A program made the position numbers and the translations under genes. A stretch of DNA of 64,000 nucleotides, taken from a bacterium (GTDB lineage Bacteria > SAR324 > NAC60-12). Each line of letters starts with the position of its first letter. Within the stretch, counting starts at the first letter, position 1. The stretch is taken from contig CBDDTI010000746.1 of assembly GCA_965233585.1 (NCBI GenBank), forward strand, positions 448,001-512,000, given 5' to 3'. This document shows positions 37,812 to 56,554 of this stretch, in pieces. The notes beneath the pieces were generated by a model that saw only the letters and a program-made list of their open reading frames with translations, ran no database searches and had not been told where the DNA came from.

Positions 37812-40151
37812 TCAAGGACCAAATGCCCAAACATCGTTTTTGCAAATTCCATCCCATTCGTCCTCTCCTCCCAGCACCCAGAGTTTGCCATTGAACACGA
37901 CACTGCTGTGAGAACCCCTTTCTGACCAGTCTGCATTGCCAGTGACTTTTGTCCAATTCGCTCCATCAGAAGAACTCCAAACATCGTTTTTTCCAACTAA
38001 ATTTCTGTCAAATCCTCCCAGCACCCAGAGTTTGCCATTGAACACGACACTGCTGTGATCATCCCTTGCTGACCAGCCTGCATTGCTAGTGACTTTTGTC
38101 CAATTCGCTCCATCAGAAGAACTCCAAACATCGTTTTTGTAACTTCCGCCCTCTCCTCCCAGCACCCAGAGTTTGCTATTGAACACGACACTGGTGTGAA
38201 CCCACCTTTCTGACCAGCCTGCATCGCTAGTGACTTTTGTCCAATTCGCTCCATCAGAAGAACTCCAAACATCGTTTTTGTAACTTCCATCCCCTCCTCC
38301 CAGCACCCAGAGTTTGCCATTGAACACGACACTGCTGTGACCAGACCTTGCTGACCAGCCTGCATTGCTAGTGACTTTTGTCCAATTCGCTCCATCAGAA
38401 GAACTCCAAACATCGTTTTTGCGACTTCCGTCATATCCTCCCAGCACCCAGAGTTTGCCATTGAACACGACACTGGTGTGATCATTCCTTGCTGACCAGC
38501 CTGCATTGCTAGTGACTTTTGTCCAATTCGCTCCATCAGAAGAACTCCAAACATCGTTTTTGCGACTTCCGTCATATCCTCCCAGCACCCAGAGTTTGCC
38601 ATTGAACACGACACTGCTGTGATCATTCCTTGCTGACCAGCCTGCATTGCCAGTGACTTTTGTCCAATTCGCTCCATCAGAAGAACTCCAAACATCGTTT
38701 TTGTTACTTCCGTCATCTCCTCCCAGCACCCAGAGTTTGCCATTGAACACGACACTGCTGTGATTCCACCTTGCTGACCAGTCTGCATTGCCAGTGACTT
38801 TTGTCCAATTCGCTCCATCAGAAGAACTCCAAACATCGTTTTTGCGACCTCCGCCATATCCTCCCAGCACCCAGAGTTTGCCATTGAACACGACACTGCT
38901 GTGATCATCCCTTGCTGACCAGCCTGCATTGCTAGTGACTTTTGTCCAATTCGCTCCATCAGAAGAACTCCAAACATCGTTTTTGTTACTTCCATCCCAT
39001 CCTCCCAGCACCCAGAGTTTGCCATTGAACACGACACTGCTGTGATCATTCCTTGCTGACCAGCCTGCATTGCTAGTGACTTTTGTCCAATTCGCTCCAT
39101 CAGAAGAACTCCAAACATCGTTTTTGTAACTTCCATCCCATCCTCCCAGCACCCAGAGTTTGCCATTGAACACGACACTGGTGTGATCATTCCTTGCTGA
39201 CCAGCCTGCATTGTTAGTGACTTTTGTCCAATTCGCTCCATCAGAAGAACTCCAAACATCGTTTTTGTCATCTCCGTCATCTCCTCCCAGCACCCAGAGT
39301 TTGCCATTGAACACGACACTGGTGTGCTCATTCCTTGCTGACCAGCCTGCATTGCTAGTGACTTTTGTCCAATTCGCTCCATCAGAAGAACTCCAAACAT
39401 CGTTTTTGTTACTTCCGTCATATCCTCCCAGCACCCAGAGTTTGCCATTGAACACGACACTGCTGTGATCATTCCTTGCTGACCAGCTTTCTTCGATTGG
39501 CTTCCAAGAGTATTTGGAGATGTCAATGCTTGGAGGTTTTAGTTTGGCAGCAATGGCTTGGTCATAGCAAGCCCAGCCTGATGCAGGCGTGTTGCCTGAT
39601 GCTTTGACACGGACGCACAACTTGCCTGACGCAATGGCATCGTCTCCAAAACTAAAAGGGCTGGTGCAGTCTGTGATTTGTCCAGAGGTGGCACTTGTGC
39701 CATGAGTGGTGCATTCGTAACTCTTGCCTGAATCAGTAGCAAACGTTAAGGTTCTGCCTGAAATAGACAAGCTGGAAGGTTTGGCTAGTTTTTGAGGTGT
39801 TGGGGTCGTAGCAGCAATCGCTTGGTCATAGCAACTCCAATCAGAAGCAGGCGTGTTGCCTGATGCTTTGACACGGACGCACAACTTGCCTGACGCAATG
39901 GCGTTGTCTCCAAAACTAAAAGGGCTGGTGCAGTCTGTGATTTGTTCAGAAGTGGCACTTGTGCCATGAGTGGTGCATTCGTAACTCTTGTCTGAATCAG
40001 TGGCAAAGGTGAGCGTTCTGCCTGAAATAGACAAGCTGGAAGGTTTGGCTAGTTTTTGAGGTGTTTCTTTTTTGTTTTCTTTGTTGTTGCCAGAAGAACT
40101 CCCACCACTACTAGACGAACTTCCATCATCTTCTGCACAAGCAGAAATCAC
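37812..40151 (-). CDS. Surface lipoprotein: two Cys-rich stalk domains + 12 Kelch-like repeats; 5' end out of frame with its probable ATG (40486)
   Basis: Lipobox VISAC with in-frame upstream hydrophobic stretch; 47-aa repeat WSAR..H.SVVFNGKLWVLGG....KNDVWSSSDGANWTKVT. Confidence 0.85.
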   Translation of the reverse strand: MISACAEDDGSSSSSGGSSSGNNKENKKETPQKLAKPSSLSISGRTLTFATDSDKSYECTTHGTSATSEQITDCTSPFSFGDNAIASGKLCVRVKASGNTPASDWSCYDQAIAATTPTPQKLAKPSSLSISGRTLTFATDSGKSYECTTHGTSATSGQITDCTSPFSFGDDAIASGKLCVRVKASGNTPASGWACYDQAIAAKLKPPSIDISKYSWKPIEESWSARNDHSSVVFNGKLWVLGGYDGSNKNDVWSSSDGANWTKVTSNAGWSARNEHTSVVFNGKLWVLGGDDGDDKNDVWSSSDGANWTKVTNNAGWSARNDHTSVVFNGKLWVLGGWDGSYKNDVWSSSDGANWTKVTSNAGWSARNDHSSVVFNGKLWVLGGWDGSNKNDVWSSSDGANWTKVTSNAGWSARDDHSSVVFNGKLWVLGGYGGGRKNDVWSSSDGANWTKVTGNADWSARWNHSSVVFNGKLWVLGGDDGSNKNDVWSSSDGANWTKVTGNAGWSARNDHSSVVFNGKLWVLGGYDGSRKNDVWSSSDGANWTKVTSNAGWSARNDHTSVVFNGKLWVLGGYDGSRKNDVWSSSDGANWTKVTSNAGWSARSGHSSVVFNGKLWVLGGGDGSYKNDVWSSSDGANWTKVTSDAGWSERWVHTSVVFNSKLWVLGGEGGSYKNDVWSSSDGANWTKVTSNAGWSARDDHSSVVFNGKLWVLGGFDRNLVGKNDVWSSSDGANWTKVTGNADWSERGSHSSVVFNGKLWVLGGEDEWDGICKNDVWAFGP
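37815..39486 (-). repeat. 12 near-identical 141-bp coding tandem repeats
   Basis: Read directly in DNA and protein. Confidence 0.95.
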
Positions 40152-40282
40152 AAAAATCGTGAGCGGAATGAGAAAAAGTTTGAAGAAGTGGGATTTGAGT
40201 AGGTGAGAGAATTTTTTGACGAAAACGCAGAGAATTTGGCATTTTTGTCTTGACTTTTGAAAAAGCTGATTTAGCCTATATA

Positions 40283-40450
40283 GATTGCGGATTGCGGATT
40301 GCGGATTGCGGATTGCGGATTGCGGATTGCGGATTGCGGATTGCGGATTGCGGATTGCGGATTGCGGATTGCGGATTGCGGATTGCGGATTGCGGATTGC
40401 GGATTGCGGATTGCGGATTGCGGATTGCGGATTGCGGATTGCGGATTGCG
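40283..40450. repeat. Perfect heptanucleotide tract (GATTGCG)24
   Basis: 168 bp = 24 perfect units. Confidence 0.97.
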
Positions 40451-40536
40451 GATAAATTTTGCATATCGTGATTTTTTTGAGTTCATAAAAATATGATTTA
40501 AATCATCATCTTAAAAAGCAAGGAAAAAAGAGGCTT

Positions 40537-40565
40537 ATTGTAAATGAGTGAAAAACGAAATGCAA
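40537..40565 (-). promoter_or_regulatory. sigma70 promoter TTGCAT-N17-TACAAT directed into the heptamer tract and Kelch gene
   Basis: Near-consensus hexamers with exact 17-bp spacer on the minus strand, ~50 bp upstream of ATG 40486. Confidence 0.65.
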
Positions 40566-40614
40566 GCACTTTTTTACAAAATTCATAAAAAATGGAGTGA
40601 TTGGGAAGAAAAAA

Positions 40615-41085
40615 AGAGATTGCGGGGCAAGGTGAGCCATGACTAAGTTCAAGTTGAGCGATGACGAAAAAACACGCTTGCAAAGTTTCTCAGTCATTCC
40701 GTGCTTTTCTTAGTCATTCCGCACTTGATGCGGAATCTCAAAAACAAAAGAAGATTGCGGGTCAAGCCCGCAATGACAAAAAGATAAGACTGCAACACTC
40801 ACGTCATTCTGTGCTTGATGCGGAATCTATCAGCAAACCAAGCACAGATTCCTACATGACTAGATTCCTGCCCCTGTTTTCACAGGGGTGACGTTCTTTC
40901 GCTCCGAATGACAATAGTTGCCATTCTGTGCTTGACACGGAATCTCAAAACGAGGAGCCGTTTAGGAAAAAAGTGAGATTGCGGGTCAAGCCCGCAATGA
41001 CAGGTTAGTTGCCATTCCGCACTTGATGCGGAATCTCAAAAAAAGTGAACGAAGAAAAAAAGAGATTGAGGGTCAAGGTGAGCAA
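40615..41085. repeat. REP-like palindrome cluster
   Basis: Same palindrome families as 36820..37750. Confidence 0.85.
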
Positions 41086-41105
41086 ACATTTTTCAAAACG
41101 AGTGT

Positions 41106-41726
41106 TCAAGATTCTACTGCCTCCAGTTGGAGCTGCAACGAAGCAGGCGTGATGACCTGTAGTTCTCCTGCCTGTTCTTGAAAAAGATAAATGTCTTGCT
41201 CTTCTGCCTCACTAATGAGTTCGTCATAAAAGACTTCTCCCGCCAAACCGCAATGGATCTCATAATCTTGATACCTTGGAAACAATTTAGGAAAGGTCTC
41301 TTTCTGCCGAAGCACTTGTTGGAAATCTTTGACATGAGGTTTGCGTTTGACTTCTATCAAAAGCAAATGTTTTGTTTTGCTGAACAACACAAGATCGTAT
41401 TGAGCCGTGATGCCATTTTTCCCTTTGAGGTTTTGTTCCACTTCGTCGTAGCGAATGCCTCCAATTTCAATGAAACCATTTTTTTCTATAACCTGTTCAG
41501 CAGAACGAAACAGACGATTTTCTAAAATTTCTGACGTATTGCTGATGAAGTTTTCCATCTGCTTCACACCTCGCATCATGCTGGCAACTGCTGGTCCGAG
41601 TTCCTGAAATTGCAAAGTGGTTTCTTCTTGGCGTTTTTTCAACTCCTGCATACCTTTGGCATTTTCTTCTTGCTGCTTTGCAACTCTATCTAAAGTTGCC
41701 CAAATTTCATCAAATTGTTCACTCAT
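41106..41726 (-). CDS. Coiled-coil + PD-(D/E)XK nuclease-fold hypothetical protein
   Basis: N-terminal heptad-rich QQEE..MQELKKRQEE; E..YDLVL....LLIEVK motif. Confidence 0.7.
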   Translation of the reverse strand: MSEQFDEIWATLDRVAKQQEENAKGMQELKKRQEETTLQFQELGPAVASMMRGVKQMENFISNTSEILENRLFRSAEQVIEKNGFIEIGGIRYDEVEQNLKGKNGITAQYDLVLFSKTKHLLLIEVKRKPHVKDFQQVLRQKETFPKLFPRYQDYEIHCGLAGEVFYDELISEAEEQDIYLFQEQAGELQVITPASLQLQLEAVES

Positions 41727-41844
41727 CTTGCTCTTCTAAAAATTCAAAGTTATAAAATCAAAACGTCTAGTCTAGCAGACTTTTGAAAAAAGAAGGGAAG
41801 GCAAAGCATAGAAAAAAACAAAAGAAGGACAAGATGAAAAAAGA

Positions 41845-42665
41845 CAGATTGCGGAACAAGGTGAGCAATGACCAAATGCAACCCAGCAAAATCCTCTCGT
41901 CATTCTGCACTTGATGCGGAATCTTAAATTCCCTCCGTCATTCCGTGCTTGACACGGAATCTATCACCAAACCAAGCACAGATTCCTACATGACTGGATT
42001 CCTGCCCCTGTTTTCACAGGGGGGACGTTCTTTCGCTCCGAATGACAGCTATTGTCATTCCGCATTTGATGCGGAATCTCTTTTTTTTCTAAACTACCCC
42101 GTCAAATCTTAACGGATTTGCCACCCCTTCACTGAAGGGGAATTGAAATTGAGAAAAGTGAAGAAAGAAAGTTGAGATTGCGGGTCAAGCCCGCAATGAC
42201 GAAAAGATAAGACTGCAACACTCCCGTCATTCCGCACTTGATGCGGAATCTCAAAAACAAAAGGAGATTCCTGCTTCCGCTCCGAATGACAAAGAAGGAG
42301 GCAAGACCGCAACACTCACGTCATTTCGTGCCTCTCTTTGCCATTCCGCACTTGATGCGGAATCTCAAAAACAAAAGGAGATTGCGGGTCAAGCCCGCAA
42401 TGACGGCTTTCAAGGTGAGCAATGACAGGGAAGTGAGAAAAAGACAAGAGAGATTGCGGGTCAAGGTGAGCAATGACTAAGTTCAAGGTCAGCAATGACG
42501 AAAAGACAAGTCTGCCAACTCTCTTCGTCATTCCGTGCTTGATGCGGAATCTCAAAAAAAGTGGTTGTTGGCAAAAAGACAAGGGGGGTTGCTGGCAAGC
42601 GAAGCCTGACGGGGTCGTTTGGAAAAAAAGAGATGGCGGGTCAAGCCAGCGGTAGGTCTTTCAAT
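41845..42665. repeat. REP-like palindrome cluster, includes a distinct CCCC-type hairpin (42091-42143)
   Basis: Same families plus ACTACCCCGTCAAATC..GATTTGCCACCCCTTCACTGAAGGGGAAT. Confidence 0.85.
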
Positions 42666-42698
42666 GACACTAAAAGGGCATTGAAAGAGGCTACCGAG

Positions 42699-42833
42699 CT
42701 ACGGCTCTACCATGTCTTCTTGATGTTGAGAAGACAGGCGGTATCCTGCATTTTTTCCCATCTGATAGGCGATATTTGCAGTGACAGCAATCAAAACGGC
42801 GATTGCCACAATATGAAGGGCAAGAAGCATCAT
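42699..42833 (-). CDS. Small single-TM protein, 44 aa (MMLLALHIVAIAVLIAVTANIAYQMGKNAGYRLSSQHQEDMVEP)
   Basis: Not in ORF track; 30 bp downstream of terB, same strand; clean N-terminal TM; TTTTATG start context like other genes here. Confidence 0.55.
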   Translation of the reverse strand: MMLLALHIVAIAVLIAVTANIAYQMGKNAGYRLSSQHQEDMVEP

Positions 42834-42863
42834 AAAATACTTTTTGATGGAAAGATGAAAAGT

Positions 42864-43277
42864 TTAAGTAACACTTTGTTGGAGACGTTGAAGCATTTCA
42901 TTGACCTTGCTTTTAATAAATGACGCATCAACAACTTGGTCTTTAAAATAGGGGTGTGTGTCAGGGTCAATAGACAAATGTTTCATGATTTTTTTGATAA
43001 ATTGTTGTTCTACCTCACAAAGTTCCCCATCTGCACAGGCAGTGAACACGAGGACATCAACCAAAAGTTGTTTACTTTCTTTGGACTTTAAGCCTTCCAA
43101 AGCATGAGACAAAGAAATTTTTTGCTGGATTTGCTGTAATTCATCTTGACTCACTTGAAGTGCTTTTAGCATAGCTTTCAATGCGTCAACTTCTGGTTGA
43201 TCCAACTTCCCATCTGTCTTTGCAACATGACGGGCAATGAAAATGATACTTAAAAATTGTTCTCTAGTGATACTCAT
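42864..43277 (-). CDS. TerB-family (tellurite resistance/DjlA N-terminal-like) protein
   Basis: Two A..DG.L...E motifs (AKTDGKLDQPE, ACADGELCEVE). Confidence 0.85.
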   Translation of the reverse strand: MSITREQFLSIIFIARHVAKTDGKLDQPEVDALKAMLKALQVSQDELQQIQQKISLSHALEGLKSKESKQLLVDVLVFTACADGELCEVEQQFIKKIMKHLSIDPDTHPYFKDQVVDASFIKSKVNEMLQRLQQSVT

Positions 43278-43289
43278 TTCAAGATATAA

Positions 43290-45692
43290 TTGATTTTTTA
43301 CTTAACACCTGATGTAAACTTCGTTATCATCTTCTGGCACAGAGTTTTTTTGCCTTCACAATCCATGAGTCACCCAGTTTACCCTATTTTACTAATCGGT
43401 CAAGATGCCCAGACACAAAATTGGGTAGAGCGTCTTGCTAAGGAGCAATTTAGTATCTCTAAAAGTAAAACGGCAATTGGGGGCTTGCAAAAAGCCATCA
43501 ACACACCAATCAGCCTGATTCTCTTTGACAGCGACCGCCAAGAATTGAGTGCAAATGAATTTTTGCAACAAATGCAAGACATCAATCTTTCTATCCCTGT
43601 CATTACTCTCACCTCCAGTTCAGACGTCGCAAAGTCCAATAGCACCAACGGTGTGTTACACAAACCTTTTTCCCAGACAGATCTTTACAACCATCTCAGC
43701 AATTTTTTTAAGAAACAAGAGGAGACGATTCGCAAAGAAGTTCAGAAAGGGAAACCCTTACCTGATATCAAAGAATCTGAAATCATGGTCGGTTTTCGCA
43801 AGCCTGCAAACATTTACAAGATTAGCAAGCAAGGAATGGTCTTGTCTTTACCTACTGAAATTCGTCCAGACTCCAGACTTCTTTTCAAAGGCGCCCCTCT
43901 TTATGAGCAGATGGGGATTGACAACATTAAGTCTAACCGTATTGAAATGCTTGTCACAGAATGCGCACCCACCATTCAAAATCGCTTCAAAGTCGTCTCA
44001 AAATTCACCGATACAGGCTTCACCGATTCAGAAAAGAAAATACTTGATGAATACATTGAACGATACGCCAGTAAGGTTGCTCTCGCCTCAAAAAATCATG
44101 GCAGTATTTTAATTTTTGGCACAGGAGAAGGCTATTACGATTCTTACCGCTTTTATTTTGAAGGAAGTCCGTATAAATTTCAATTTGCAGGCACTCCTGA
44201 AAAGGTTTTAAGTGAGATTCAATCCTCCACCATTGATGTTTTGATCATTGACTCTGACAATTTAGATGCCCGCATTACATCACTTCTTGATTCGTTTCAA
44301 AAACAAAAAAGGAGGCTTCCTATCATTTTGGTCACAGGGGATCAAAATCAAAATGCCATCGCTCAGGTGGCAACTTTAGTCCAAGACCTCATTATCAAGC
44401 CAATCAACGGAAAAATGTTGCTCCAACGTCTGGCAAAAGTTCGGAAACGTTGGGAGTTTGAAGAGCAGGTGCAAAAAAAAATTGGAGCAAGTGTTGGGGT
44501 GAGTATTGAGACCAAAATCTTGGTGGTTTTTAAGGATCAAGCAGTCATTCAAAGAATCAGAAATAATGGATTATTGCTTTACAAAGAACAAGCCATTATT
44601 CCAACAACAACTATCTACTTTCGTGCGAATGAGTTTTTTCAGCTGCTCAGCGTTCAGTCCAAAAATATGACGCATATTGAGTTAGAAGTTGTCAGCTGCC
44701 AATATGATTTAGAAAAAAAACTTTATCGCGTCATTGCAAATTTTAAAGAAATTAGCGACCACTTGGTGCAAGCAGTCCAAGACTTTTTAAGTGGAAAACT
44801 GATGCCCGGTGCAACGCTTGCTGAACCTGAAACGACTACGCAAGAAGACATGCTTGATGCCATTCCTGATGCACCAGATACACCAGACGAAAAAGCAAAA
44901 GAGGAAGACTCTGGAGGGTGGCTGTTCTTGAAAGAACCAGAAGAAGAAGAGGAAGACTCTGGAGGTTGGCTGTTCTTGAAAGAACCAGAAGAAGAGGAGG
45001 AAGAAGATGACCCTATACTTCCACCACCGCCCCAAGAACAGGAAGCATCAAATTTAGAGACGATACAACATGAACAGCCAGAAGGCGTGAAATGGGACGT
45101 CAGCCAAAAAGAAGAGTCAGAACCTGAAGAAGCCCCCTTTATCATTCCCCCAAAACCCAAAATACAACAATACTCTCTTTCAGACCTTGTCAGGGAGCTT
45201 CCTCAATGCCAAGTGCAAAGTCTTAAAAGTCTTCATTTTAGCGATGAGTTTTTCTCAGAAGATGAAGACTCTTACACTTCACAGCTCAAGATGCAGCGTG
45301 GACAAATTCATGCTCACAAAGCTAAACTGCAACAAGTTGCCCAAAAATACCTTGGCTCCAATCCAGATTTTTACAAACAGCGGTTCAATACCAAATTAGT
45401 AACACAAGAACGTGCGGCAGTGCTTCATGTGTTTAGTGAGCAACTGGAATGTTTCATGTTGATTGGTGCAACACTCAAAACTGTCCCAAAAGGCATGGGA
45501 ATTTCTGCAAGTTTGGCTGAAGACTCTTATGAATACACTCCTTATTACTTGATTGGAGTCCCCAAACCGCAACATGTGGACTTTGGAGTTGCTTTTGAAA
45601 CGAGGTCGTTCATGGACCGTGAAGTCGCCATCTGCTCACCAACCAACAAAGACGTTGGTCAAATTTTACCAGACCTCTTGAAATTGCTATGA
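43290..45692 (+). CDS. Multi-domain signalling protein: REC, PilZ-like, REC, PilZ-like, acidic linker, C-terminal unknown domain (start likely 43365)
   Basis: LILFD...IPVITLT...KPF and VLIID...PIILVT...IKP receiver patterns; ISKQGM beta-barrel-like segment. Confidence 0.65.
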   Translation: MIFYLTPDVNFVIIFWHRVFLPSQSMSHPVYPILLIGQDAQTQNWVERLAKEQFSISKSKTAIGGLQKAINTPISLILFDSDRQELSANEFLQQMQDINLSIPVITLTSSSDVAKSNSTNGVLHKPFSQTDLYNHLSNFFKKQEETIRKEVQKGKPLPDIKESEIMVGFRKPANIYKISKQGMVLSLPTEIRPDSRLLFKGAPLYEQMGIDNIKSNRIEMLVTECAPTIQNRFKVVSKFTDTGFTDSEKKILDEYIERYASKVALASKNHGSILIFGTGEGYYDSYRFYFEGSPYKFQFAGTPEKVLSEIQSSTIDVLIIDSDNLDARITSLLDSFQKQKRRLPIILVTGDQNQNAIAQVATLVQDLIIKPINGKMLLQRLAKVRKRWEFEEQVQKKIGASVGVSIETKILVVFKDQAVIQRIRNNGLLLYKEQAIIPTTTIYFRANEFFQLLSVQSKNMTHIELEVVSCQYDLEKKLYRVIANFKEISDHLVQAVQDFLSGKLMPGATLAEPETTTQEDMLDAIPDAPDTPDEKAKEEDSGGWLFLKEPEEEEEDSGGWLFLKEPEEEEEEDDPILPPPPQEQEASNLETIQHEQPEGVKWDVSQKEESEPEEAPFIIPPKPKIQQYSLSDLVRELPQCQVQSLKSLHFSDEFFSEDEDSYTSQLKMQRGQIHAHKAKLQQVAQKYLGSNPDFYKQRFNTKLVTQERAAVLHVFSEQLECFMLIGATLKTVPKGMGISASLAEDSYEYTPYYLIGVPKPQHVDFGVAFETRSFMDREVAICSPTNKDVGQILPDLLKLL
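44901..44996 (+). repeat. 48-bp in-frame tandem duplication (EEDSGGWLFLKEPEEE x2)
   Basis: Read directly. Confidence 0.9.
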
Positions 45693-47569: not shown

Positions 47570-47636
47570 AAAAATTTGAAAAATCAAAATGATTTTCATC
47601 TCCTTGCTTTTTTAACCTCATTTTTAATGGAATTTT

Positions 47637-48764: not shown

Positions 48765-48828
48765 AGGCAACATTCTGCGACACCCTGATTGTTTAACTTG
48801 TCTCTTCAGTTGACTGACTTGGTCAAGG

Positions 48829-51800
48829 TCAAGTAGATTTGACAGGTTCAATGATGAAAAGGAGGTCTCCACTTGTGACAGTCTGTGCATTTTCAGGGAA
48901 GATGCGGACAACCTTGTACTCTCCTTCAGGGTAAAGAATCTCAGTTTCAGTGTTGAACGAGGCAAGGGAGATTTCGCTGAACACCTTCATTGATTCCAGC
49001 AAACAAAGAGGGTCTTTGATTCCAACAACTTGGTCAGCTTCTACCAATGAGGGGTCTTCTGGATTGACAGAACGGTAAAAGGTTGCTGTCTGAGCAGCCA
49101 AGACCTTCAGCTCATTAGACTCATTAATCGTGATAGCAGAACGATTGATTTGTGAGCCACTTTCTCCTGCATCACGTTTGGTTTTTTTAATCAGCTTGGC
49201 AAAGTCAACACGTTTGAAAAAGCCATGAATGAAGTTGGTGTCATACGTTCCTGAATGAAAGACTTCATCAGCAAGCAAAGTTTTCATAAAAGCAAGGTTG
49301 GTAGAAATTCCAGTGATTTTGACATTTTTCAGGTATTTAGACAGCTTATCAATCGCCTCGGCTCTGGTCTGACCATGAGCAATGATTTGTGCAACCAAGC
49401 TGTCATAATAAGGAGGCACAAACGAATCGTCACCGATAGCGGCAAAGACTCTCACATCTTCTGACTTGGGAAATACTGCTTTTAAAACTTTGCCGGGGTC
49501 AGGGAGGAAGGCGACCGTTCCGTCAGACTTCAGGTCAATCCTTTCTGCAGTCATACGAAGTTCTATGGCGTGACCTTCATTTTTCGTTTTTAACGACGCA
49601 AGGCTTTTGCCTTCTGAAACTTCAATCTGTTTCTGGACCAAATCAATTCCTGCCGTCGCTTCTGTGACAGGGTGTTCTACTTGCAAACGTGTGTTCATCT
49701 CCATGAAATACACTTGCTCGTCAGTGAGGTCATAGATAAACTCCACCGTACCAACCCCAATGTAATTGATATGATTGGCAATTTTTGTGGAATAGCTTGC
49801 CAGTTCTTCTTGCAATGCTTTGTGGAGATTTGCAGATTCTTCAACAAGTTTCTGGTAATTGCGTTGAATGGAACAATCACGTATGCCGACAATATGACAA
49901 CTTTTTGAAGTATTTTTGCTATCACGAAGGATTTGCACCTCAATATGCCTCATGGAGGCAATGTATTTTTCAAGATACAAATCACCATTGCCAAAAGCAT
50001 TATAGGCTTCTTGGCTCATCTGCCTGAAGATAGAGACAAAAGATTCTTCTTTTTCAACAACTTGAATCCCTTTGCCTCCCCCTCCATGAGCGGCTTTGAT
50101 TAACACAGGGAAGCCGATGTTTTTTGCCACTTCTAATGCTTGTTGTGGGTCAGTCAACGCCCCATCGCTTCCCGGGACAACAGGAATCCCCAGCTCTTTT
50201 GCAGTAGAAATCGCATTGGTTTTGTTCCCCATACGTTCCATGTTCAATGCAGTTGGTCCAATGAAGCTGAGTTCATACTTACGGCAGATGGCGGCAAAAC
50301 GTGCAGACTCTGAAAGGAAGCCAATTCCTGGGTGCAAGGCATCTACTCCGTGTTTTTCTGCGATACGTATGACACTCATGGCATTAAGGTAGCTTTCTTG
50401 CGGCGTGTTGCCCCCAAGGCAAACCAGCTGGTCGTTCTCTTTCAAAAGCCGTGTGGGGTAGCTGTCCATGTCTGCATCAGACTGTACCAGCACAATCTCC
50501 TTGCCTGCATCATGGGCGGCATGAATCAAACGCGTTGCCGTGCAACCTCTGGCATGAATCAAAATGCGTTGAATGGGTCTAAAAAAGATGTTCTCTTCAA
50601 ACACTTGGTCTTTGGGTTCGTTCACTTCAAGACGTTGATATTGCCCTTGCAAAATTCTGCTGATGACCTCGTGAATGGTAAGTTTCGCAAGAGGAATTTC
50701 AGGGTCAATGGCAGACAGCTTGTCTCCAATGTTCTCATCAAAGGGATTTTGAACAAGACCCTCCATGCTTTCATGGTTGTCAGAAAGATAATCTGCAAGA
50801 ATGGAGTTCATCGGCAGGTGACTTTCTACCACCAACTGCCCTGCAAATGAAATCAACGCACCTGAAAGATAATACGTTTTTGCCAGACGATGCGTGACAA
50901 AACTGGCTTGCGCACCTCCCATGCAATCACGGAAGCCAAAGCAGATGACAGGCAAGTCATTGGTTTTGATGAAACGTGTCAGCCTGTCATTCATAATTGC
51001 CATGGAAAAGAGTGACCCCGGACCCTCTTTGGTTTGCATACCTCCTGAAGAAATAAAAAAGATGACAGGCAGTCTCTTTTGCGTACATTCTGCCAGCAAC
51101 ATGCAAACTTTTTCACAGCTTGCCATGTCAAAAGCACCTACTTGAAACAAGGTGTTACTCACAACCACACCGACCTCTTTTTCAAAGCCGTCGTCATGGT
51201 ATGTTGCAATGCCTGTCAAGACACCAGAGGGGGGAATGTTGTTTTTAATACTTTTGTCAATGGAATCCCTAAACCCCGGGAACTGCACAGGGTCAGCAGT
51301 CATTAAATTTTCATTCAATTCTTTAAAATCTTTGAAAGCATAGTCAATGATTTGCTGGGGGCTAATGGTTTGTTTTTTGTAGCTATTTAAGAGTTCTTGG
51401 ATTTGCAAATCTTTGTAAGCACGGTCTAGTTGCTGCCAAAAATTGTTGATGCCAATGTTGCGTGGGGCAATCGTTCCGTCAAATGTCCCCCCTCCTTCTG
51501 CAACAGACCAAGAAGGCAGCAGAGAAGAAAAATAATACCTTGCTAATCCAAACAAAGCAGGGTTCACACGTGGCAATGCCAGTTGCTTCCAACCGCTAAT
51601 CGTTTGCATGATGGCATCACAATTCTTGCGTGACACAAAGTTGGCAAGCCAGATGAAGAAATCTTCTCGCGACGTCTTTAAATCTACGGGGATAGAATGT
51701 TGCTCATACTTCTGCATCGCTTTTTGCAACGCAAGGTCAAACAGCTTGCCTACTGACTCTTGTGAGATAGAATTAGACTTGCAAAGTTCTGCGGCAATCA

Positions 51801-53349
51801 TGTGAAAGTTTTCAATCAAGGCATCATGCAGCAGGTCAAATAAAATCATGTTCGGAAAGACATGCAAAAATTCTTGCAAAATGTTGGGGTCTTTCACGGT
51901 TTCTAACAAGGTGGGGTTTGAGATTCGTTTGACCTCAATCTTGTCAGAATGCTTTAAATGTGAATAAAGCAAGATCAAATTTTCAACAGCATACTGCTTC
52001 CAATAATTGTAAAGGTATAAAACAATTTCAGAGGTCAGTGTATTGAGTGCAAGGCTGTAATTCTTTTTGGGATTGCCTATAAAAAACTCTGCAAATTTAC
52101 TACGTTGCGAGTCCCGTTGTTCTTCTGTTTCCAGATACTTTTTCAGCTTCTTTTGCAAACTTTCTTCATATTTCATCTCCAAAGGGGCTTGCAACCATTT
52201 TTCAAACGCATCAATTCGGCTTTGATTTAGACGTTCCTTTAAGTTGCCAGAAGGCACAGAGATATTGCTTAACTGAGAATAGCTGTGACTAGACCCACTT
52301 GTGATGCGAAGACGCATATTCACGTAACGTAAAAAACGATAGCCTTCCCCAAAAATATTGAGTAATCCTGTGGGTGTTTTGTCTGTCACGACATTGTCTT
52401 CTTCCCAGATTTTTGACGGATTCAAATAATGGTTGATGCTGTCTCGGTAGTGGTCAAAAAAGAAGTCATGCGTTCTCAAAAGTTTTTTCGCCCCTTCTTC
52501 TATGGATTCTATGGCACTTAAAATAGCAAGCCTTAAGTTTTGAGAGTTGCCAGACTGCCCCGGTGAATAGTCAATCACTCCATCACAATAACCATTGGCA
52601 TATAGTTCATAAGCAGAAGATCCAATGTACTTCGCACATTCTTCCCATGATAAATTGTATTTTTTAGAAATGTTACTTAACCCCTTAGGGTGAATGGTAG
52701 CAAAGACGCCATCACGCACTGAAAGCAAAAGATTACTTGCCGCAAAGGGAATCGCACCCCCACTGTATCCTTGACCCCAAATCACCCCAACTGTCGGCAC
52801 TTGTAAATTTGCCATCTCTGCGATTAAAAAGGAGATGCTATGCGACTGATTTTGCTGATTTGCCAGCTCATCAGCCATGGCACCGGGGGTATCTATGAAC
52901 GACACGACAGGCATACCATGCGAGGCAAAAAAACGTGCCTTCTCTGCCGCCTTCCAGTGTTGCCTTGGTGTCCATGCTCCATTTTGAAACGCACGATTTT
53001 GTGCAATGAAGCCAATCCGTCTGACTTGCGTACCAATCACAAACTCTGTTTCTGCAAAATAAAGCTGTCCATCGCTTTCTTCTTGAATCATCTTGCCTCC
53101 AAGCGAACAAATCGCCTCTTTGGCATTCAGACGATTCGCATGTTCTGACGGGGCAATCGTCGCTTGAATGTAGGCATCTATGTCCAACTTTCTGATTTGG
53201 TCTATTTTCTCTTGCACTTCTTCGTCAGAAATGACGCCTTTGAGCAAGTTTTGTGTCAGGTAGTCAGGTCTCTTTGCCGCATTGACTGCAAGGTTATGAC
53301 AGATGAGTTCGGTTTGGACAAATAAAGGTCGTGGGGTGTGCTGCGCCAT
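48829..53349 (-). CDS. Single-chain biotin-dependent acyl-CoA carboxylase: CT-alpha, CT-beta, biotin carboxylase, BCCP
   Basis: FIDTPGA/GYSGGA (AccA-like), SSGGMQTKEG/GGAQASF (AccD-like), HPG.GFLSE/GGGGKG/RDCSIQR/EMNTRLQVEHPVTE/YYDS (BC), ESMKV biotinyl-lysine; start at MAQHTP. Confidence 0.88.
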   Translation of the reverse strand: MAQHTPRPLFVQTELICHNLAVNAAKRPDYLTQNLLKGVISDEEVQEKIDQIRKLDIDAYIQATIAPSEHANRLNAKEAICSLGGKMIQEESDGQLYFAETEFVIGTQVRRIGFIAQNRAFQNGAWTPRQHWKAAEKARFFASHGMPVVSFIDTPGAMADELANQQNQSHSISFLIAEMANLQVPTVGVIWGQGYSGGAIPFAASNLLLSVRDGVFATIHPKGLSNISKKYNLSWEECAKYIGSSAYELYANGYCDGVIDYSPGQSGNSQNLRLAILSAIESIEEGAKKLLRTHDFFFDHYRDSINHYLNPSKIWEEDNVVTDKTPTGLLNIFGEGYRFLRYVNMRLRITSGSSHSYSQLSNISVPSGNLKERLNQSRIDAFEKWLQAPLEMKYEESLQKKLKKYLETEEQRDSQRSKFAEFFIGNPKKNYSLALNTLTSEIVLYLYNYWKQYAVENLILLYSHLKHSDKIEVKRISNPTLLETVKDPNILQEFLHVFPNMILFDLLHDALIENFHMIAAELCKSNSISQESVGKLFDLALQKAMQKYEQHSIPVDLKTSREDFFIWLANFVSRKNCDAIMQTISGWKQLALPRVNPALFGLARYYFSSLLPSWSVAEGGGTFDGTIAPRNIGINNFWQQLDRAYKDLQIQELLNSYKKQTISPQQIIDYAFKDFKELNENLMTADPVQFPGFRDSIDKSIKNNIPPSGVLTGIATYHDDGFEKEVGVVVSNTLFQVGAFDMASCEKVCMLLAECTQKRLPVIFFISSGGMQTKEGPGSLFSMAIMNDRLTRFIKTNDLPVICFGFRDCMGGAQASFVTHRLAKTYYLSGALISFAGQLVVESHLPMNSILADYLSDNHESMEGLVQNPFDENIGDKLSAIDPEIPLAKLTIHEVISRILQGQYQRLEVNEPKDQVFEENIFFRPIQRILIHARGCTATRLIHAAHDAGKEIVLVQSDADMDSYPTRLLKENDQLVCLGGNTPQESYLNAMSVIRIAEKHGVDALHPGIGFLSESARFAAICRKYELSFIGPTALNMERMGNKTNAISTAKELGIPVVPGSDGALTDPQQALEVAKNIGFPVLIKAAHGGGGKGIQVVEKEESFVSIFRQMSQEAYNAFGNGDLYLEKYIASMRHIEVQILRDSKNTSKSCHIVGIRDCSIQRNYQKLVEESANLHKALQEELASYSTKIANHINYIGVGTVEFIYDLTDEQVYFMEMNTRLQVEHPVTEATAGIDLVQKQIEVSEGKSLASLKTKNEGHAIELRMTAERIDLKSDGTVAFLPDPGKVLKAVFPKSEDVRVFAAIGDDSFVPPYYDSLVAQIIAHGQTRAEAIDKLSKYLKNVKITGISTNLAFMKTLLADEVFHSGTYDTNFIHGFFKRVDFAKLIKKTKRDAGESGSQINRSAITINESNELKVLAAQTATFYRSVNPEDPSLVEADQVVGIKDPLCLLESMKVFSEISLASFNTETEILYPEGEYKVVRIFPENAQTVTSGDLLFIIEPVKST

Positions 53350-53394
53350 AGTGTGTTTTTCTTTAGAATCTTTTGAATGTTGTTGACTCGCCTT

Positions 53395-54265
53395 TTGGTC
53401 ATTGCGGGCTTGACCCGCAATCTTCCTTTTCGTCATTTTGGACTTGTTCTTCTTTTGTCATTGCGGGACCTGACCCGCAATCTCTCTTTTTTAAATGAAC
53501 AAATCAATGTCAAGAGCATGAACAAAAAGATAGCGTCAGATTATAACGAATCTCTTAGCACTTCACAACACTTGACTCCATTCAATCAAACCTTCCTACG
53601 AAGGCAGAAACCCAGTCATGTAGGAATCTGTGCTTGGTTTAAGATAGATTCCGCATCAAGTGCGGAATGACTACGACCGTCATTCCTGCGAAAGCAGGAA
53701 TCCATGCGATGTTGACGATGGATTCCGCATCAAGTGCGGAATGACTGAGAGGTTTTGTAGGCGTGTCTTTTCGTCATTGCTCACCTTGCCCCGCAATCTC
53801 CCTTGTCTTTTTCTCAACAACTCCTTTTTTTGAGATTCCGCATCAAGTGCGGAATGACGGAGAGGTTTTGTAGGCGTGTCTTTTCGTCATTGCTTACCTT
53901 GACCCGCAATCTCCATTTTTTTGAGATTCTGCATCAAGTGCGGAATGACTACGACCGTCATTCCTGCGAAGGCAGGAATCTATCCTCCAACTGCTGATAG
54001 ATTCCGCATCAAGCACTACAATGACGGAAGGAGTTTGCTCACTTTGAAAACCGTCATTGCGGGACCTGACCCGCAATCTCATTCTTCTTAAAACACAGGA
54101 CAAACTTGGGTTTGTCCCTACGTTGTCATTGCGTGCTTGACCCGCAATCTCTCTTGTTTTCTATCCGCGTCATCGCTCACTTTGAAAACTGTCATTGCTG
54201 ACCTTGACCCGCAATCTCATTCTTCTTAAAATACATGACAAACACTTGGGTTTGTCCCTACTCTG
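53395..54265. repeat. REP-like palindrome cluster
   Basis: Same families, mostly in opposite orientation. Confidence 0.85.
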
Positions 54266-54483
54266 CCACCTGCTTGCTTTTCATCATTTTTCTGTTTTTT
54301 GACTTCCCAATCTGCTTACTTTTCAGATTTTTTTGAAAAATCTTAAAAAATCTTCAAAATTCCTTAATTTTTTTCAAACTACCTTCACACCTTCATCTTT
54401 CCTGACTTCCCAAACGCATTCTTTCTTCAAAACAGCCAAAAAAATTCCTTAAAAACCAAAAAAATTCCCTCAAGTCCTGAGTC

Positions 54484-54520
54484 TTGACTTGGTTTTTTTT
54501 TGTACGTGCATAATGCACGT
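54484..54520 (+). promoter_or_regulatory. Putative promoter TTGACT-N19(T9 tract)-CATAAT with palindrome ACGTGCA-TAA-TGCACGT over the -10
   Basis: Read directly; ~160 bp upstream of SBBP lipoprotein ATG. Confidence 0.5.
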
Positions 54521-54592
54521 TTTGGTTTTTCGCAAAACTCCCATCTTGAAAATAAATGAAGGTTTCATTTCAAGAGGAGAGTTTTTCGTGTG

Positions 54593-54614
54593 ACAGCACC
54601 CTAAAGGGTGCTGT
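54593..54614 (+). terminator. GC-rich hairpin followed by T-rich tract in the 5' leader of the SBBP gene
   Basis: ACAGCACCC-TAAA-GGGTGCTGT then tgtgttgttggttttt. Confidence 0.45.
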
Positions 54615-54676
54615 TGTGTTGTTGGTTTTTAATTTTTTCTCAATCTTGTTCAATTTTGTTTAATAGGTAGGTTTTT

Positions 54677-56554
54677 ATGCAAAAGTTCATCAATCGTTGT
54701 TTTGTTCATTTGGCATCTGTTGTCAAACCTTCTGTTGTCCAGACAGGTGTTTGCCTGCTGTGCATCACGACTCTCTTTGCCTGCAGTAGTGACGATGGTG
54801 GTGTGTCCACGGTGACCGTCACAGAAAAAGTAGTGCCACCAAGCACTCCGAGTGAAGTGAAAACGAGCGAGGTCAAAGCCAGCAGTGTCAAGGTCAGCTG
54901 GTTGCCTTCAGCAGATTCAGATGGTCAAGTGGAAGGTTATGAAGTCTCTTACAAGACAAGTAGCGGGTCATGGACTGGCACACAAACCACCACGCAAACC
55001 AGTCTGATTGTGTCAGGATTACAGCCTGAAACCAGCTACACTTTTCGTGTTCGTGCCAAAGATGATGAGGGAGACTGGAGTCCTTACCAACAAAGCTCTG
55101 CTGTCAAGACTGCACCCAACGCACCAACTTCTCTTGCTATTTCAGGCAGAACGCTCACCTTTGCCACCACTTCAGGCAAGAGTTACGAATGCACCACGCA
55201 TGGCACAAGTGCCACTGCCGCACAAATCACAAACTGCACCAGCCCTTTTCGCTTTGGAGATGATGCCATTGCTAAAGACAACCTTTGCGTTCGTGTCAAA
55301 GCATCTGGCACTCCTGCTTCTGATTGGGCTTGTTACGCACAAGCGATTTTTAAGAAAGTCTTGACTAAACAATGGTCCAAACTGCTTGGCAGTAGCAATT
55401 CAGATTATGGAAGAGGAGTGAGTGTGGATTCAGCAGGCAATGTGTATGTGACAGGAAACTCTCATGGAAATTTTGATGGACATACCAATTCAGGAGGTTA
55501 TGACATGTTTTTAGTGAAGTATGACAGTTCAGGTAATAAGAAGTGGTCTAAACTGCTTGGCAGTAGCGATTCTGATTATGGATATGGAGTGAGTGTGGAT
55601 TCAGCAGGCAATGTTTATGTGACAGGATACTCTTGGGGAAATTTTGATGGACACAGCAGTTCAGGAGGTTATGACATGTTTTTAGTCAAGTATGACAGTT
55701 CAGGTAATAAGAAGTGGTCTAAACTGCTTGGCGGTAGCAATTCAGATTATGGAGAAGGAGTGAGTGTGGATTCTTCAGGCAATGTTTACGTGACAGGAGA
55801 ATCTTTGGGAAATTTTGATGGACACAGCAATTCGGGAAGTTTTGACATGTTTTTAGTGAAGTATGACAGTTCAGGTAATAAGAAGTGGTCTAAATTGCTT
55901 GGTACTAGCAGTTGGGATTTAGGAGAAGGAGTGGTTGTGGATTCTGCAGGCAATGTGTATGTGACAGGATACTCTGGGGGAAATTTTGATGGACACAGCA
56001 ATTCAGGAGGTTGGGACATGTTTTTAGTGAAATATGACCCTTCAGGTAATAAGAAGTGGTCTAAATTGCTTGGCAGTAGCAGAAATGATGAAGGAAGAGG
56101 AGTGAGTGTGGATTCTGCAGGAAATGTTTATGTCACAGGAAGATCTGAAGGAAACTTTGATGGACACAGCAATTCAGGAAGTGATATGTTTTTAGTGAAG
56201 TATGACAGTTCAGGAGTGAAGAAGTGGTCTAAACTGTTTGGCAGTAGCAGTTGGGATTCAGGAAGAGGAGTGAGTGTGGATTCAGCAGGCAATGTGTATG
56301 TGACAGGAATATCTGAAGGAAATTTTGATGGACACAGCTATTCAGGAAGTGATGATATGTTTTTAGTGAAGTATGACAGTTCAGGTAATAAGAAGTGGTC
56401 TAAACTGCTTGGCACTACAGATTATGATAGAGGATATGGAGTGAGTGTGGATTCAGCAGGCAATGTTTACGTCACAGGAAGCTCTTGGGGAAATTTTGAT
56501 GGACATGTCAATTCAGGAGATAGGGACATGTTTTTAATCAAGTTTGGGAGGTAG
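54677..56554 (+). CDS. Surface lipoprotein: FN3 domain + Cys-rich stalk domain + 7 SBBP beta-propeller repeats
   Basis: Lipobox LFAC; FN3 (VSW..S.D.DG.VEGY, GLQPETSYTFRVRAKD); 57-aa repeat KWSKLLG...D.G.GVSVDSAGNVYVTG.S.GNFDGH..SG..DMFLVKYDSSG. Confidence 0.9.
   Translation: MQKFINRCFVHLASVVKPSVVQTGVCLLCITTLFACSSDDGGVSTVTVTEKVVPPSTPSEVKTSEVKASSVKVSWLPSADSDGQVEGYEVSYKTSSGSWTGTQTTTQTSLIVSGLQPETSYTFRVRAKDDEGDWSPYQQSSAVKTAPNAPTSLAISGRTLTFATTSGKSYECTTHGTSATAAQITNCTSPFRFGDDAIAKDNLCVRVKASGTPASDWACYAQAIFKKVLTKQWSKLLGSSNSDYGRGVSVDSAGNVYVTGNSHGNFDGHTNSGGYDMFLVKYDSSGNKKWSKLLGSSDSDYGYGVSVDSAGNVYVTGYSWGNFDGHSSSGGYDMFLVKYDSSGNKKWSKLLGGSNSDYGEGVSVDSSGNVYVTGESLGNFDGHSNSGSFDMFLVKYDSSGNKKWSKLLGTSSWDLGEGVVVDSAGNVYVTGYSGGNFDGHSNSGGWDMFLVKYDPSGNKKWSKLLGSSRNDEGRGVSVDSAGNVYVTGRSEGNFDGHSNSGSDMFLVKYDSSGVKKWSKLFGSSSWDSGRGVSVDSAGNVYVTGISEGNFDGHSYSGSDDMFLVKYDSSGNKKWSKLLGTTDYDRGYGVSVDSAGNVYVTGSSWGNFDGHVNSGDRDMFLIKFGR
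55370..56551 (+). repeat. 7 near-identical ~171-bp coding tandem repeats
   Basis: Read directly. Confidence 0.93.

Follow-up and report, generated by a model that had tools for sequence, protein, structure and literature searches.

Two genes with repeat-built heads, one made of Kelch blades and the other of SBBP blades, lie in a 64,000-nt stretch of contig CBDDTI010000746.1 from an uncultured environmental bacterium of the SAR324 lineage (hereafter the window; coordinates are positions within it unless another contig is named). These genes raise the question of whether they form one modular surface-lipoprotein system, as a first-pass annotation of 37812-56554 had proposed, and of what their pattern of similar blades with a few highly variable codons means. 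Our analysis suggests, with a probability of roughly 0.55, that both genes are members of a dispersed family, specific to the lineage, of modular proteins that are exported and in most cases bear a lipobox, with diversified propeller heads and with expression that would be set gene by gene by short sequence tracts. The parts of the two genes are as follows (HMM, hidden Markov model).

37812..40151, minus strand: Kelch-head gene, 779 amino acids from a GTG; stop-to-stop frame open to 40502
40137..40235, minus strand: export signal in the main frame, KKFSHLLKSHFFKLFLIPLTIFVISAC, with lipobox ISAC; no in-frame ATG, GTG or TTG
39828..40043, minus strand: stalk copy 1, 4-Cys and FN3-like (HMM envelope)
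39564..39779, minus strand: stalk copy 2 (HMM envelope), within a 264-nt tandem duplication with 93% matches
37859..39487, minus strand: Kelch blade array, 12 blades in 141-nt units (Tandem Repeats Finder, AlphaFold2, DSSP, Foldseek)
54677..56554, plus strand: SBBP-head lipoprotein gene, 625 amino acids, with ATG, signal peptide with lipobox LFAC, fn3 domain at residues 56-136, stalk and 7 blades
55124..55336, plus strand: stalk copy of the SBBP gene (HMM envelope)
55373..56543, plus strand: SBBP blade array in 171-nt units (tandem-repeat and blade alignment)

The Kelch open reading frame (ORF) encodes, in this order, a lipobox (VISAC), a Ser/Gly/Asn/Lys linker, two 4-Cys modules of ~72 residues and 12 Kelch blades, ten of them exactly 47 residues long and then one of 49 and one of ~50. 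The SBBP protein has seven blades of 56-57 residues. These counts agree with the 12 x ~47-residue and 7 x ~57-residue blades described earlier. Pfam Kelch_1 matches the Kelch protein over 11 stretches (E = 6e-71; 233.9 bits against a cut-off of 20.1), which places it in the Kelch families PF01344 and PF24681, and SBBP (PF06739) matches the other protein over seven (E = 2e-77; 255.2 bits against 20.5). No NCBIfam family matches the Kelch protein. Inspection by eye, rather than with a dedicated predictor, finds a start, a charged n-region, an h-region and a lipobox in the SBBP gene (MQKF...CLLCITTLFAC). The Kelch gene has an h-region and the ISAC lipobox, and in the assembly it has no in-frame ATG, GTG or TTG before the lipobox. 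In a protein database search the SBBP protein was returned as its own match and the Kelch protein was not; this absence fits gene callers not calling the ORF from the GTG and is consistent with an unclear start.

Searches with stalk and blade HMMs define a family of 44 ORFs in the assembly, 22 of which carry the stalk. The blade HMMs find 182 Kelch blades in 25 ORFs, mostly 6 or 12 per protein, and 93 SBBP blades in 14 ORFs, mostly 7 or 14 per protein. According to Pfam, the heads of the 19 other stalk ORFs are SBBP in nine, Kelch in five, and RCC1, Lcl_C and a DUF5122 propeller in one each; the remaining two have no Pfam head, one giving no Pfam match at all and the other fn3 domains only. 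LamG ends one Kelch protein of the stalk family. The stalk usually follows one to five fn3 domains and alternates with fn3; it does not always adjoin the head and reaches six copies per protein. In 16 of the 22 stalk ORFs a lipobox stands behind a hydrophobic stretch. Modular shuffling, which the first-pass annotation had proposed from the two window genes, is thus borne out across the assembly: the stalk occurs in 22 ORFs with at least six head types, and a ~300-nt module of promoter-like sequence, leader and signal peptide is common to genes with different heads.

The proposal of a single system spanning 37812-56554 did not survive. Nine ORFs between or beside the two genes were scanned with Pfam and comprise an amidohydrolase, a TerB-domain protein, a response regulator, UvrC, a methionine-synthase-like protein, a large carboxylase, an OmpA-family protein and two ORFs without a Pfam match. 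UvrC, the carboxylase, the response regulator and similar housekeeping genes sit between the Kelch and SBBP genes, which are therefore two dispersed members of a family and not a single locus.

The pattern of variation within the heads is clearest in the Kelch gene. Its ten regular blades have a mean identity of 94% in DNA and 88% in protein over 47 residues. Of the 47 codon columns, 35 show no DNA difference at all, the other 12 differ in amino acid, and purely synonymous variation is absent. Change is concentrated at a few codons per blade, as had been claimed: 17 of 22 variable nucleotide sites fall in seven codons (21 of 141 nt; hypergeometric P = 4e-14), namely blade columns 4, 5, 21, 22, 24, 25 and 43. 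We estimated the proportions of synonymous (pS) and nonsynonymous (pN) differences by Nei-Gojobori counting over 45 Kelch blade pairs. In the 40 scaffold codons pS is 0 and pN is 0.014, and in the seven hypervariable codons pN is 0.35 and pS is 0.20. Several blade pairs have scaffolds that are 100% identical and yet differ at the hypervariable codons, often by 2-3 nt (AAT/TGG/TCT; TAT/TGG/GGG/GAG).

The SBBP blades are older than the Kelch blades and follow the same logic. Their 57 columns include 22 that are invariant, 21 that vary in amino acid and 14 that vary only synonymously. Counted over blades 1-6, the scaffold has a pS of 0.19 and a pN/pS of 0.21, and eight hypervariable codons (columns 8, 9, 11, 13, 28, 30, 41 and 42) have a pN/pS of 1.46. 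The earlier description of both scaffolds as nearly identical even at synonymous sites therefore holds for the Kelch blades but not for the SBBP blades. Likewise, the residue bias at the variable sites is not W/Y/D/R/S/G, as first written; over all family blades it is Y/N/S/R/D/G in Kelch and Y/E/S/D/R/F in SBBP, where W makes up only 5%. The same columns lead the entropy ranking in most paralogues. For Kelch the ranking is likewise led by these columns in 25 proteins from other organisms, each with four or more gapless blades; their blade identity reaches 70% at most, with none at or above 80%.

A structural model places the Kelch variation on one face. The AlphaFold2 model of the Kelch head, built from six family sequences, has a predicted local distance difference test score (pLDDT) of 84 and a predicted template modelling score (pTM) of 0.58, with low-confidence residues at 287-290 between blades 6 and 7. 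Foldseek matches it to six-bladed Kelch domains (NS1-BP, LZTR1, KLHL12 and the designed SAKe6) at target-normalised template modelling scores (TMt) of 0.75-0.85 over ~280-300 columns. Since these matches cover about half of the model, the 12 blades probably form two six-bladed propellers. DSSP assigns the strands of each blade to columns 7-11, 14-21, 25-32 and 38-42. Of the variable positions, columns 21 and 25 stand on either side of the B-C turn, and the D-A loop holds columns 4 and 5, ahead of strand A, as well as columns 43-46, behind strand D; apart from one G-to-S change, the A-B and C-D loops show no variation. Because each blade is a four-stranded antiparallel meander, its B-C and D-A loops share one face, so the diversification of the Kelch head maps to a single face of the model, as the first-pass annotation had anticipated. 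This face is the canonical partner-binding face of Kelch domains. In the SBBP blades, the variable stretches would be loops 1 and 3 and the invariant ones loops 2 and 4, again on one face.

Exchange of blades is evident in a second SBBP gene.

C746:539726-541615: SBBP paralogue, 37 kb from the window SBBP gene and 94% identical to it in protein

The duplicated segment runs from about -470 to +1920 relative to the ATG. The two copies are 100% identical over the first 630 nt and in blade 4 but only 83-87% identical in blades 1-3. The differences in blades 1-3 include linked synonymous variants that also separate blades within the gene (TCA/TCT, GGC/GGA), which indicates that whole blades were swapped rather than mutated in place. 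This mosaic gives the suggestion of blade-level exchange a clear instance. The nearest scaffold neighbour of a blade lies in the same gene for 21 of 66 SBBP blades versus 42 of 64 Kelch blades, including all ten regular blades of the window Kelch gene. At Kelch columns 7 (S/T) and 21 (Y/W), which are 42 nt apart, all four combinations are present; this fits either short-tract exchange or recurrent mutation.

The two heads are unrelated folds, and both genes share the stalk. The HMM envelopes confirm that it occurs twice in the Kelch gene and once in the SBBP gene at exactly the positions first noted, and a mean DNA column identity of 91% over the three window copies bears out their strong DNA similarity. 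The module is ~70-72 residues long with four conserved cysteines, and an iterated HMM search over all six-frame ORFs finds 32 copies in the 22 ORFs. Compared with Pfam, it gives no match of any kind up to E = 10, fn3, Big and CHB_HEX_C included; a sequence profile search of the PDB returns nothing below a best E of 1. The AlphaFold2 model from an alignment of 25 copies is a small beta-sandwich (pLDDT 90.9). Foldseek finds no PDB structure for this model at E <= 1e-3, and the top rows of a VIA-align comparison are mostly FN3-type domains, at a Z of only 6.6 and a root-mean-square deviation of 2.7 over 63-66 aligned residues, a level that is common according to the tool.

The stalk profile has no match at E <= 1e-5 in 44 other genomes of the same taxonomic family, many of which are incomplete (51-100%), and a pattern scan of 185,579 species genomes gave 36 pattern matches, none of which was confirmed. 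Searching 1.84 billion representative proteins returned 344 matches at E <= 1e-3, 14 of them at E <= 1e-30. Among the examined proteins that match at least 55 of 69 model positions, the 4-Cys form occurs outside the assembly only in P0024, a protein of 834 residues from another source, where it stands behind an M23 peptidase domain and has the 'TTHGTSATAAQITNC' subtype of the window genes. The weaker matches come from extracellular proteins with many repeats, in which the region that matches overlaps Pfam domains of two groups. The first comprises Big_13, Big_3_2 and Y_Y_Y, with a two-Cys form FECSLDGG...C.SP...VRA.DAAGN; the other is CHB_HEX_C with the BNR Asp-box, with a form that lacks cysteines, YEYSLDGG.TW. 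One copy in the assembly, L035, still reads YEYSTDGGLTW. From these comparisons and the model, we conclude that the stalk is probably a lineage-restricted, disulfide-type offshoot (its two disulfides being predicted) of a widespread Ig/FN3-like spacer domain rather than a new fold. The remark that no such family is known therefore stands to the extent that no Pfam family matches, but not for the fold, which is probably an FN3-like sandwich, or for the sequence, which is remotely related to Big_13, CHB_HEX_C and Y_Y_Y.

Three genes contain one and the same truncated half-stalk, which covers model positions 1-48 and ends in ...FGDDAIAELD; in one of them it stands at the extreme C-terminus. It may represent a recombination joint.

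L024:3085-3231, minus strand: half-stalk, identical truncation
L038:1543-1689, plus strand: half-stalk, identical truncation
L026:40-186, minus strand: half-stalk, identical truncation

The first-pass annotation had also noted candidate on/off tracts in both genes, and these are present in each: T9 at 54493-54501 upstream of the SBBP gene and (CCGCAAT)24.4 at 40283-40453 in the Kelch gene. Both lie where contingency loci place such tracts, the T9 between TTGACT and CATAAT and the (CCGCAAT)24, through which the frame stays open, behind an ATG and ahead of the export signal.

54484..54514, plus strand: promoter-like module TTGACT-TGG-T9-GTACGTG-CATAAT, spacer 19, with T9 at 54493-54501

About 300 nt of upstream sequence and the signal peptide are common to four genes, two with SBBP heads, one with Lcl_C and one with fn3 only. 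More widely, the motif TTGACT, TTAACT, TTGGCT or GTGGCT, followed by 2 to 4 nt, T(n), GTAC[GT]TG and CATA[AG]T, lies upstream of 16 family genes. The T tract is 8 long in three of them, 9 in two, 10 in five, 11 in one and 12 in five; in the first motif subtype, n = 8 corresponds to a spacer of 18 and n = 12 to a spacer of 21. The window SBBP gene has T9 (spacer 19) and its duplicate T8 (spacer 18), the sequence on either side being 99-100% identical. Stretches of eight or more T are rare genome-wide, at ~0.09 per 760 nt per strand, yet 23 of the 44 family ORFs have one between -500 and +260. We obtained this picture from a listing of tract contexts because the -35 hexamer varies and a strict promoter pattern is consequently too narrow, giving 117 matches genome-wide of which three are upstream of family genes. 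The hexamers around the T tract presumably form a promoter.

The tract of the Kelch gene is a heptamer array, which belongs to a different 5' module. The frame relations given here for its units are arithmetic on coordinates.

40283..40453, minus strand: (CCGCAAT)x24 array (24.4 units); main frame open through the array
40462..40464, minus strand: upstream ATG, conserved, 13 nt from the array, ATGCAAAATTTAT; 23 or 26 units would bring it into frame, the 24 units present do not
40240..40242, minus strand: ATG downstream of the array, one base out of frame with the export signal
C295:101579-101697: array of 17 units
C745:167237-167299: array of 9 units
C746:71143-71268: array of 18 units
C747:156520-156575: array of 8 units

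These five arrays, of 8, 9, 17, 18 and 24 units, are all that the genome contains, and each has a conserved ATG before it and a homologous leader with signal region behind it. A purine-rich, Shine-Dalgarno-like stretch precedes four of the five ATGs. The other four arrays precede ORFs without a Pfam head, one of which has a weak DUF7151 match. The counterpart of the ATG at 40240-40242 in the paralogous 5' module at C295:101.7k is in frame. This layout would suit a translational switch; for the Kelch gene itself, decay is an equally simple reading.

Two candidate explanations for the frame of the Kelch gene were rejected. One variant contig in sequencing run X3, with a 1-nt gap at 40239 and five substitutions, looked like an in-frame Kelch allele; its differences match the paralogous 5' module at C295:101699-101844, and it is therefore a product of cross-mapping. 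The A6 run at 40212-40217 is not a frameshift site, as contigs of all four public runs show the length of the assembly; the frame difference between the Kelch gene and the paralogue adjoins the ATG.

Repetitive extragenic palindromic (REP) sequences surround both genes. We searched for two hairpin-type patterns, ATTGCGG-n-CCGCAAT and ATTCCGCA-n-TGCGGAAT, and the heptamer unit CCGCAAT is the core of the first type.

36880..37500: REP cluster downstream of the Kelch gene (this and the following clusters by pattern search, unstranded)
40716..41040: REP cluster upstream of the Kelch gene
41902..42530: REP cluster
53401..54090: REP cluster upstream of the SBBP gene
56656..57060: REP cluster downstream of the SBBP gene

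Clusters flank each gene on both sides, as had been noticed before; with narrower limits, these four run over 36880-37473, 40716-41014, 53401-54056 and 56656-57037. The window contains 31 matches versus ~1.7 expected from the density of the whole assembly, and all of them are clustered beside the two genes, at 41.9-42.5 kb or at 59.3 kb. Across the genome, 136 of 322 matches fall within the 1.5-kb flanks of the 44 family ORFs, flanks that make up 4.4% of the four large contigs, so REP flanking of the family is about tenfold above expectation. A REP match is found in a flank of 33 of the 44 ORFs and on both sides of 14.

Family membership, architecture, the substitution pattern, the mosaic paralogue, the tract differences among paralogues and the REP association are direct observations. 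From them we infer that the proteins are exposed at the surface and bind ligands, that an antagonist or a variable ligand exerts selection, and that expression is switched on and off, which together would work as follows. A lipid anchor, a low-complexity linker and fn3 and 4-Cys FN3-like spacers would carry the head outwards; this head would bind a ligand and is in most cases a Kelch or SBBP propeller with six or seven blades, sometimes a doubled one. Heads would arise by recent amplification of single blades. Blade exchange within and between genes would keep the scaffolds alike, and diversifying selection would keep a few codons of the B-C and D-A loops different, such that every blade and every paralogue shows a different surface. 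Expression would be set for each gene through slippage-prone tracts, either T8-T12 in the promoter-like spacer or (CCGCAAT)n between the start and the export signal. On a bolder version, which we consider unlikely, the family would constitute an extracytoplasmic recognition repertoire of ~40 lipid-anchored, individually switchable propeller receptors, whose faces are kept diverse while their scaffolds are homogenised by REP-seeded short-tract exchange or an unknown targeted process. If true, the family would give prokaryotes an equivalent, at the cell surface, of the repeat-built receptor repertoires in fungal and animal immunity, with prey, phage, kin or particles as the things told apart.

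Several observations weigh against a switchable, diversifying family. As assembled, none of the five heptamer arrays has a conventional start in frame with its export signal; at four of them the upstream ATG lies in the wrong frame, and at the C295 array it reads another frame and the frame of the downstream ATG stops ~44 codons on. The assembly shows no in-frame start for the Kelch gene, and over 40036-40270 it is matched by contigs from four public runs, which come from one study and two samples, none of them recorded as RNA. This gene may therefore be in decay and not just switched off. Translation of (CCGCAAT)23 would also put ~100 residues before the signal peptide, which is unusual. For the T tracts, promoter assignment depends on hexamer resemblance only, and a promoter scan did not call the window module with its spacer of 19. 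The tract differences lie among paralogues, not within one locus, and homopolymer lengths are possibly assembly errors. No alleles from other strains were found, the best Kelch identity outside the assembly being 60-63%. The placement of SBBP variation on one face is built on strands assigned from the alternation of hydrophobic segments, not on a model, and an excess of pN over pS in codons picked for their variability is partly circular.

The rival explanations account for parts of this pattern. The proteins could be multivalent, lectin-like lipoproteins that bind nutrients or particles, with blade differences tuning sugar specificity and with an expansion that serves substrate range, free of any arms race or switching. 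We give this idea only a modest chance of being right, about the same as the repertoire. Many phyla have extracellular proteins with such Kelch and SBBP heads, which occur there alongside type IX secretion system (T9SS), cadherin, Big and CBM domains; 3113 of 8000 scored candidates match in the Kelch search, the closest at 60-63% identity, and 5415 of 8000 in the SBBP search, the closest outside the assembly at 66%. Lcl_C and LamG heads also occur in the family, and the Tyr-rich variable sites suit sugar binding. However, substrate breadth alone leaves unexplained the zero synonymous divergence with multi-nucleotide changes in loop codons, as well as the slippage-prone tracts on at least 16 genes, and no transporter or glycoside hydrolase was seen among the nine ORFs scanned. 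Neutral birth and death of young repeats would instead attribute the pattern to recent amplification, tolerant loops and decaying copies, with neither selection nor switching. The missing start of the Kelch gene would then be one case of decay among others, as would the fragments and frameshifted family neighbours at C746:58025-58621 and C747:1045622-1046044, and many disrupted, highly repetitive propellers are reported in the accessible text of Pereira and Lupas 2022 (PMC9218822). We nevertheless regard neutrality as quite improbable: at most ~1 of ~25 inferred Kelch changes is synonymous (binomial P = 0.009 at 24% expected), multi-nucleotide codon differences stand next to scaffolds that are 100% identical, and the same columns vary in old and young paralogues.

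Two further rivals concern how the differences came about, and we give both very little weight. The first is a dedicated mutator that acts on the loop codons by targeted hypermutation or templated micro-conversion. It would accommodate the ~0.35 differences per nonsynonymous site in seven codons versus 0 at ~27 synonymous scaffold sites per blade, and the recurrence of the linked haplotypes TGG-GAT and GGG-GAT. The changes, though, are confined neither to A sites, as with diversity-generating retroelements (DGRs), nor to C-to-T and G-to-A, as with deaminases; they include T-to-G and G-to-C classes, and we reject mutagenesis of the DGR or deaminase type. No reverse transcriptase is encoded among the nine neighbouring ORFs scanned, the genome itself not having been searched for them, no donor blades with the same scaffold occur in other genes, and all four combinations of columns 7 and 21 fit ordinary short-tract exchange. 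The second would make the perfect scaffolds and the blade order unreal, the tandem blades having been collapsed or homogenised in assembly. Twelve 141-nt repeats at 94% identity are indeed hard to assemble, and the public-run contigs are short and cover only the 5' end of the Kelch gene. Against such an artefact stand the 830-kb length of the contig and the gradation of the pattern over many paralogues, with blade identities from 55% to 94%; the hypervariable codons are preserved rather than averaged, and the frame is intact over all 12 blades.

Returning to the dispersed, diversified family, the combination of near-identical repeats and hypervariable codons for surface residues is characteristic of fungal self/non-self receptors and of cytoplasmic NLR-like proteins of filamentous bacteria. 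By analogy, the closest known counterpart appears to be the high-internal-conservation (HIC) repeats of fungal NOD-like receptors (NLRs) rather than the variable lymphocyte receptors (VLRs) with which the two genes had first been compared. The WD repeats of fungal het-d and het-e undergo concerted evolution within and between paralogues together with positive selection on four surface residues, according to the accessible text of Paoletti 2007 (PMC1805685). The HIC threshold, as given in the available part of Dyrka 2014 (PMC4986451), is more than 85% identity between repeats over at least 100 residues; the Kelch blades exceed it at 88% mean amino acid identity, and the SBBP blades, at 83%, are just under. 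Like the WD40, ANK and TPR HIC repeats of fungal NLRs, as far as the partial sources describe them, the proteins studied here have near-identical tandem repeats, few diversifying surface codons and exchange within and between paralogues. Unlike them, they are predicted exported bacterial lipoproteins and not cytoplasmic NOD/STAND proteins, their repeats are Kelch and SBBP, they have slippage-prone tracts and there is no repeat-induced point mutation (RIP). According to Pfam, no NACHT or NB-ARC domain is present in the Kelch protein, the SBBP protein or the 19 other stalk ORFs. The likeness to lamprey VLRs, which also carry variable residues on one face of a repeat protein on a stalk, is one of protein logic only: Pfam finds no leucine-rich repeat (LRR) domain, there is no evidence of somatic assembly, and no bank of promoter-less cassettes was noticed among the family ORFs, in an unsystematic inspection in which the ORFs had their own 5' modules or were fragments.

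In the accessible text of Pereira and Lupas 2022 (PMC9218822), Kelch is among the highly repetitive, recently amplified and often disrupted propellers, and innate immunity or self-recognition is raised as a possible reason. The heads described here are likewise propellers freshly amplified from a single blade, and the Kelch superfamily is one of the lineages named there; loop hypervariability, the lipoprotein architecture and the shared stalk are not described in that text, where 'SBBP' occurs 0 times. The SBBP protein matches NCBIfam NF047494, the LipL53 family, over residues 228-623 with 281.3 bits (E = 1e-83), below the 400-bit cut-off, which makes it, judged by score, a relative of that family and not an equivalog. 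Leptospira LipL53 proteins are a class already named of lipoproteins with a seven-bladed SBBP propeller, and the window protein differs in having fn3 and the stalk between anchor and head. LipL53 binds extracellular matrix. Among simple-sequence contingency loci, Neisseria has homopolymers in promoter spacers and CTCTT repeats in the signal-peptide region of opa, and H. influenzae hmw1A and hmw2A reportedly have 7-bp repeats upstream. The tracts described here resemble these in placing a homopolymer between -35- and -10-like hexamers and a heptamer array between start and export signal; they differ in being poly-T and CCGCAAT, the REP core, in belonging to an uncultured environmental bacterium, and in that switching is here a prediction from the layout.

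The literature searched, some of it accessible only in part, held no description of HIC-type hypervariable repeats in exported Kelch or SBBP lipoproteins with contingency-type tracts, which is not proof of absence. The occurrence of the same signature here suggests that bacteria also generate binding diversity in this way outside the cell. What distinguishes the family is that its proteins are predicted to be exported and lipid-anchored, that the unrelated Kelch and SBBP folds have spacers and 5' modules in common, and that their genes carry slippage-prone tracts; the pattern is suggestive, by analogy, of a fast-evolving, switchable binding repertoire. Three objects also come out of the analysis: a spacer domain that can be annotated, FN3-like, of disulfide type and restricted to the lineage; a promoter-like module, recurring across the family, whose T tract varies in length; and the strong association with REP sequences.

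Some minor features accompany these genes. The conserved SBBP leader contains two terminator-like hairpins, each followed by a T run.

54504..54520, plus strand: terminator-like hairpin
54588..54619, plus strand: terminator-like hairpin

The first is a perfect 7-bp palindrome, ACGTGCA-TAA-TGCACGT, that overlaps the -10-like hexamer, and it could be an operator or an attenuator. Runs of G7 occur in the coding region of three family genes, at ~+190 nt in C745:228241-230130 and C746:377616-380729 and at +27 in C747:469395, and are further candidate frameshift tracts. Four tandem genes of 445-458 residues on the minus strand at C747:983643-993907 each encode a Kelch propeller of six blades and lack the stalk. 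All four have a T8 run in the first ~30 nt ahead of the point where the stop-to-stop frame opens, three at -32 and one at -102.

The 322 REP matches are confined to contigs C745, C746, C747, C295, C729 and C723, with 308 in the four largest, which amount to ~2.8 Mb of a 12-Mb, 747-contig assembly. The assembly may be a mixed bin, and the bacterium's own genome may be much smaller. Within the window, a 48-nt tandem repeat of 2.2 copies with 96% matches lies at 44899-45004, inside the response-regulator ORF at 43290-45692.

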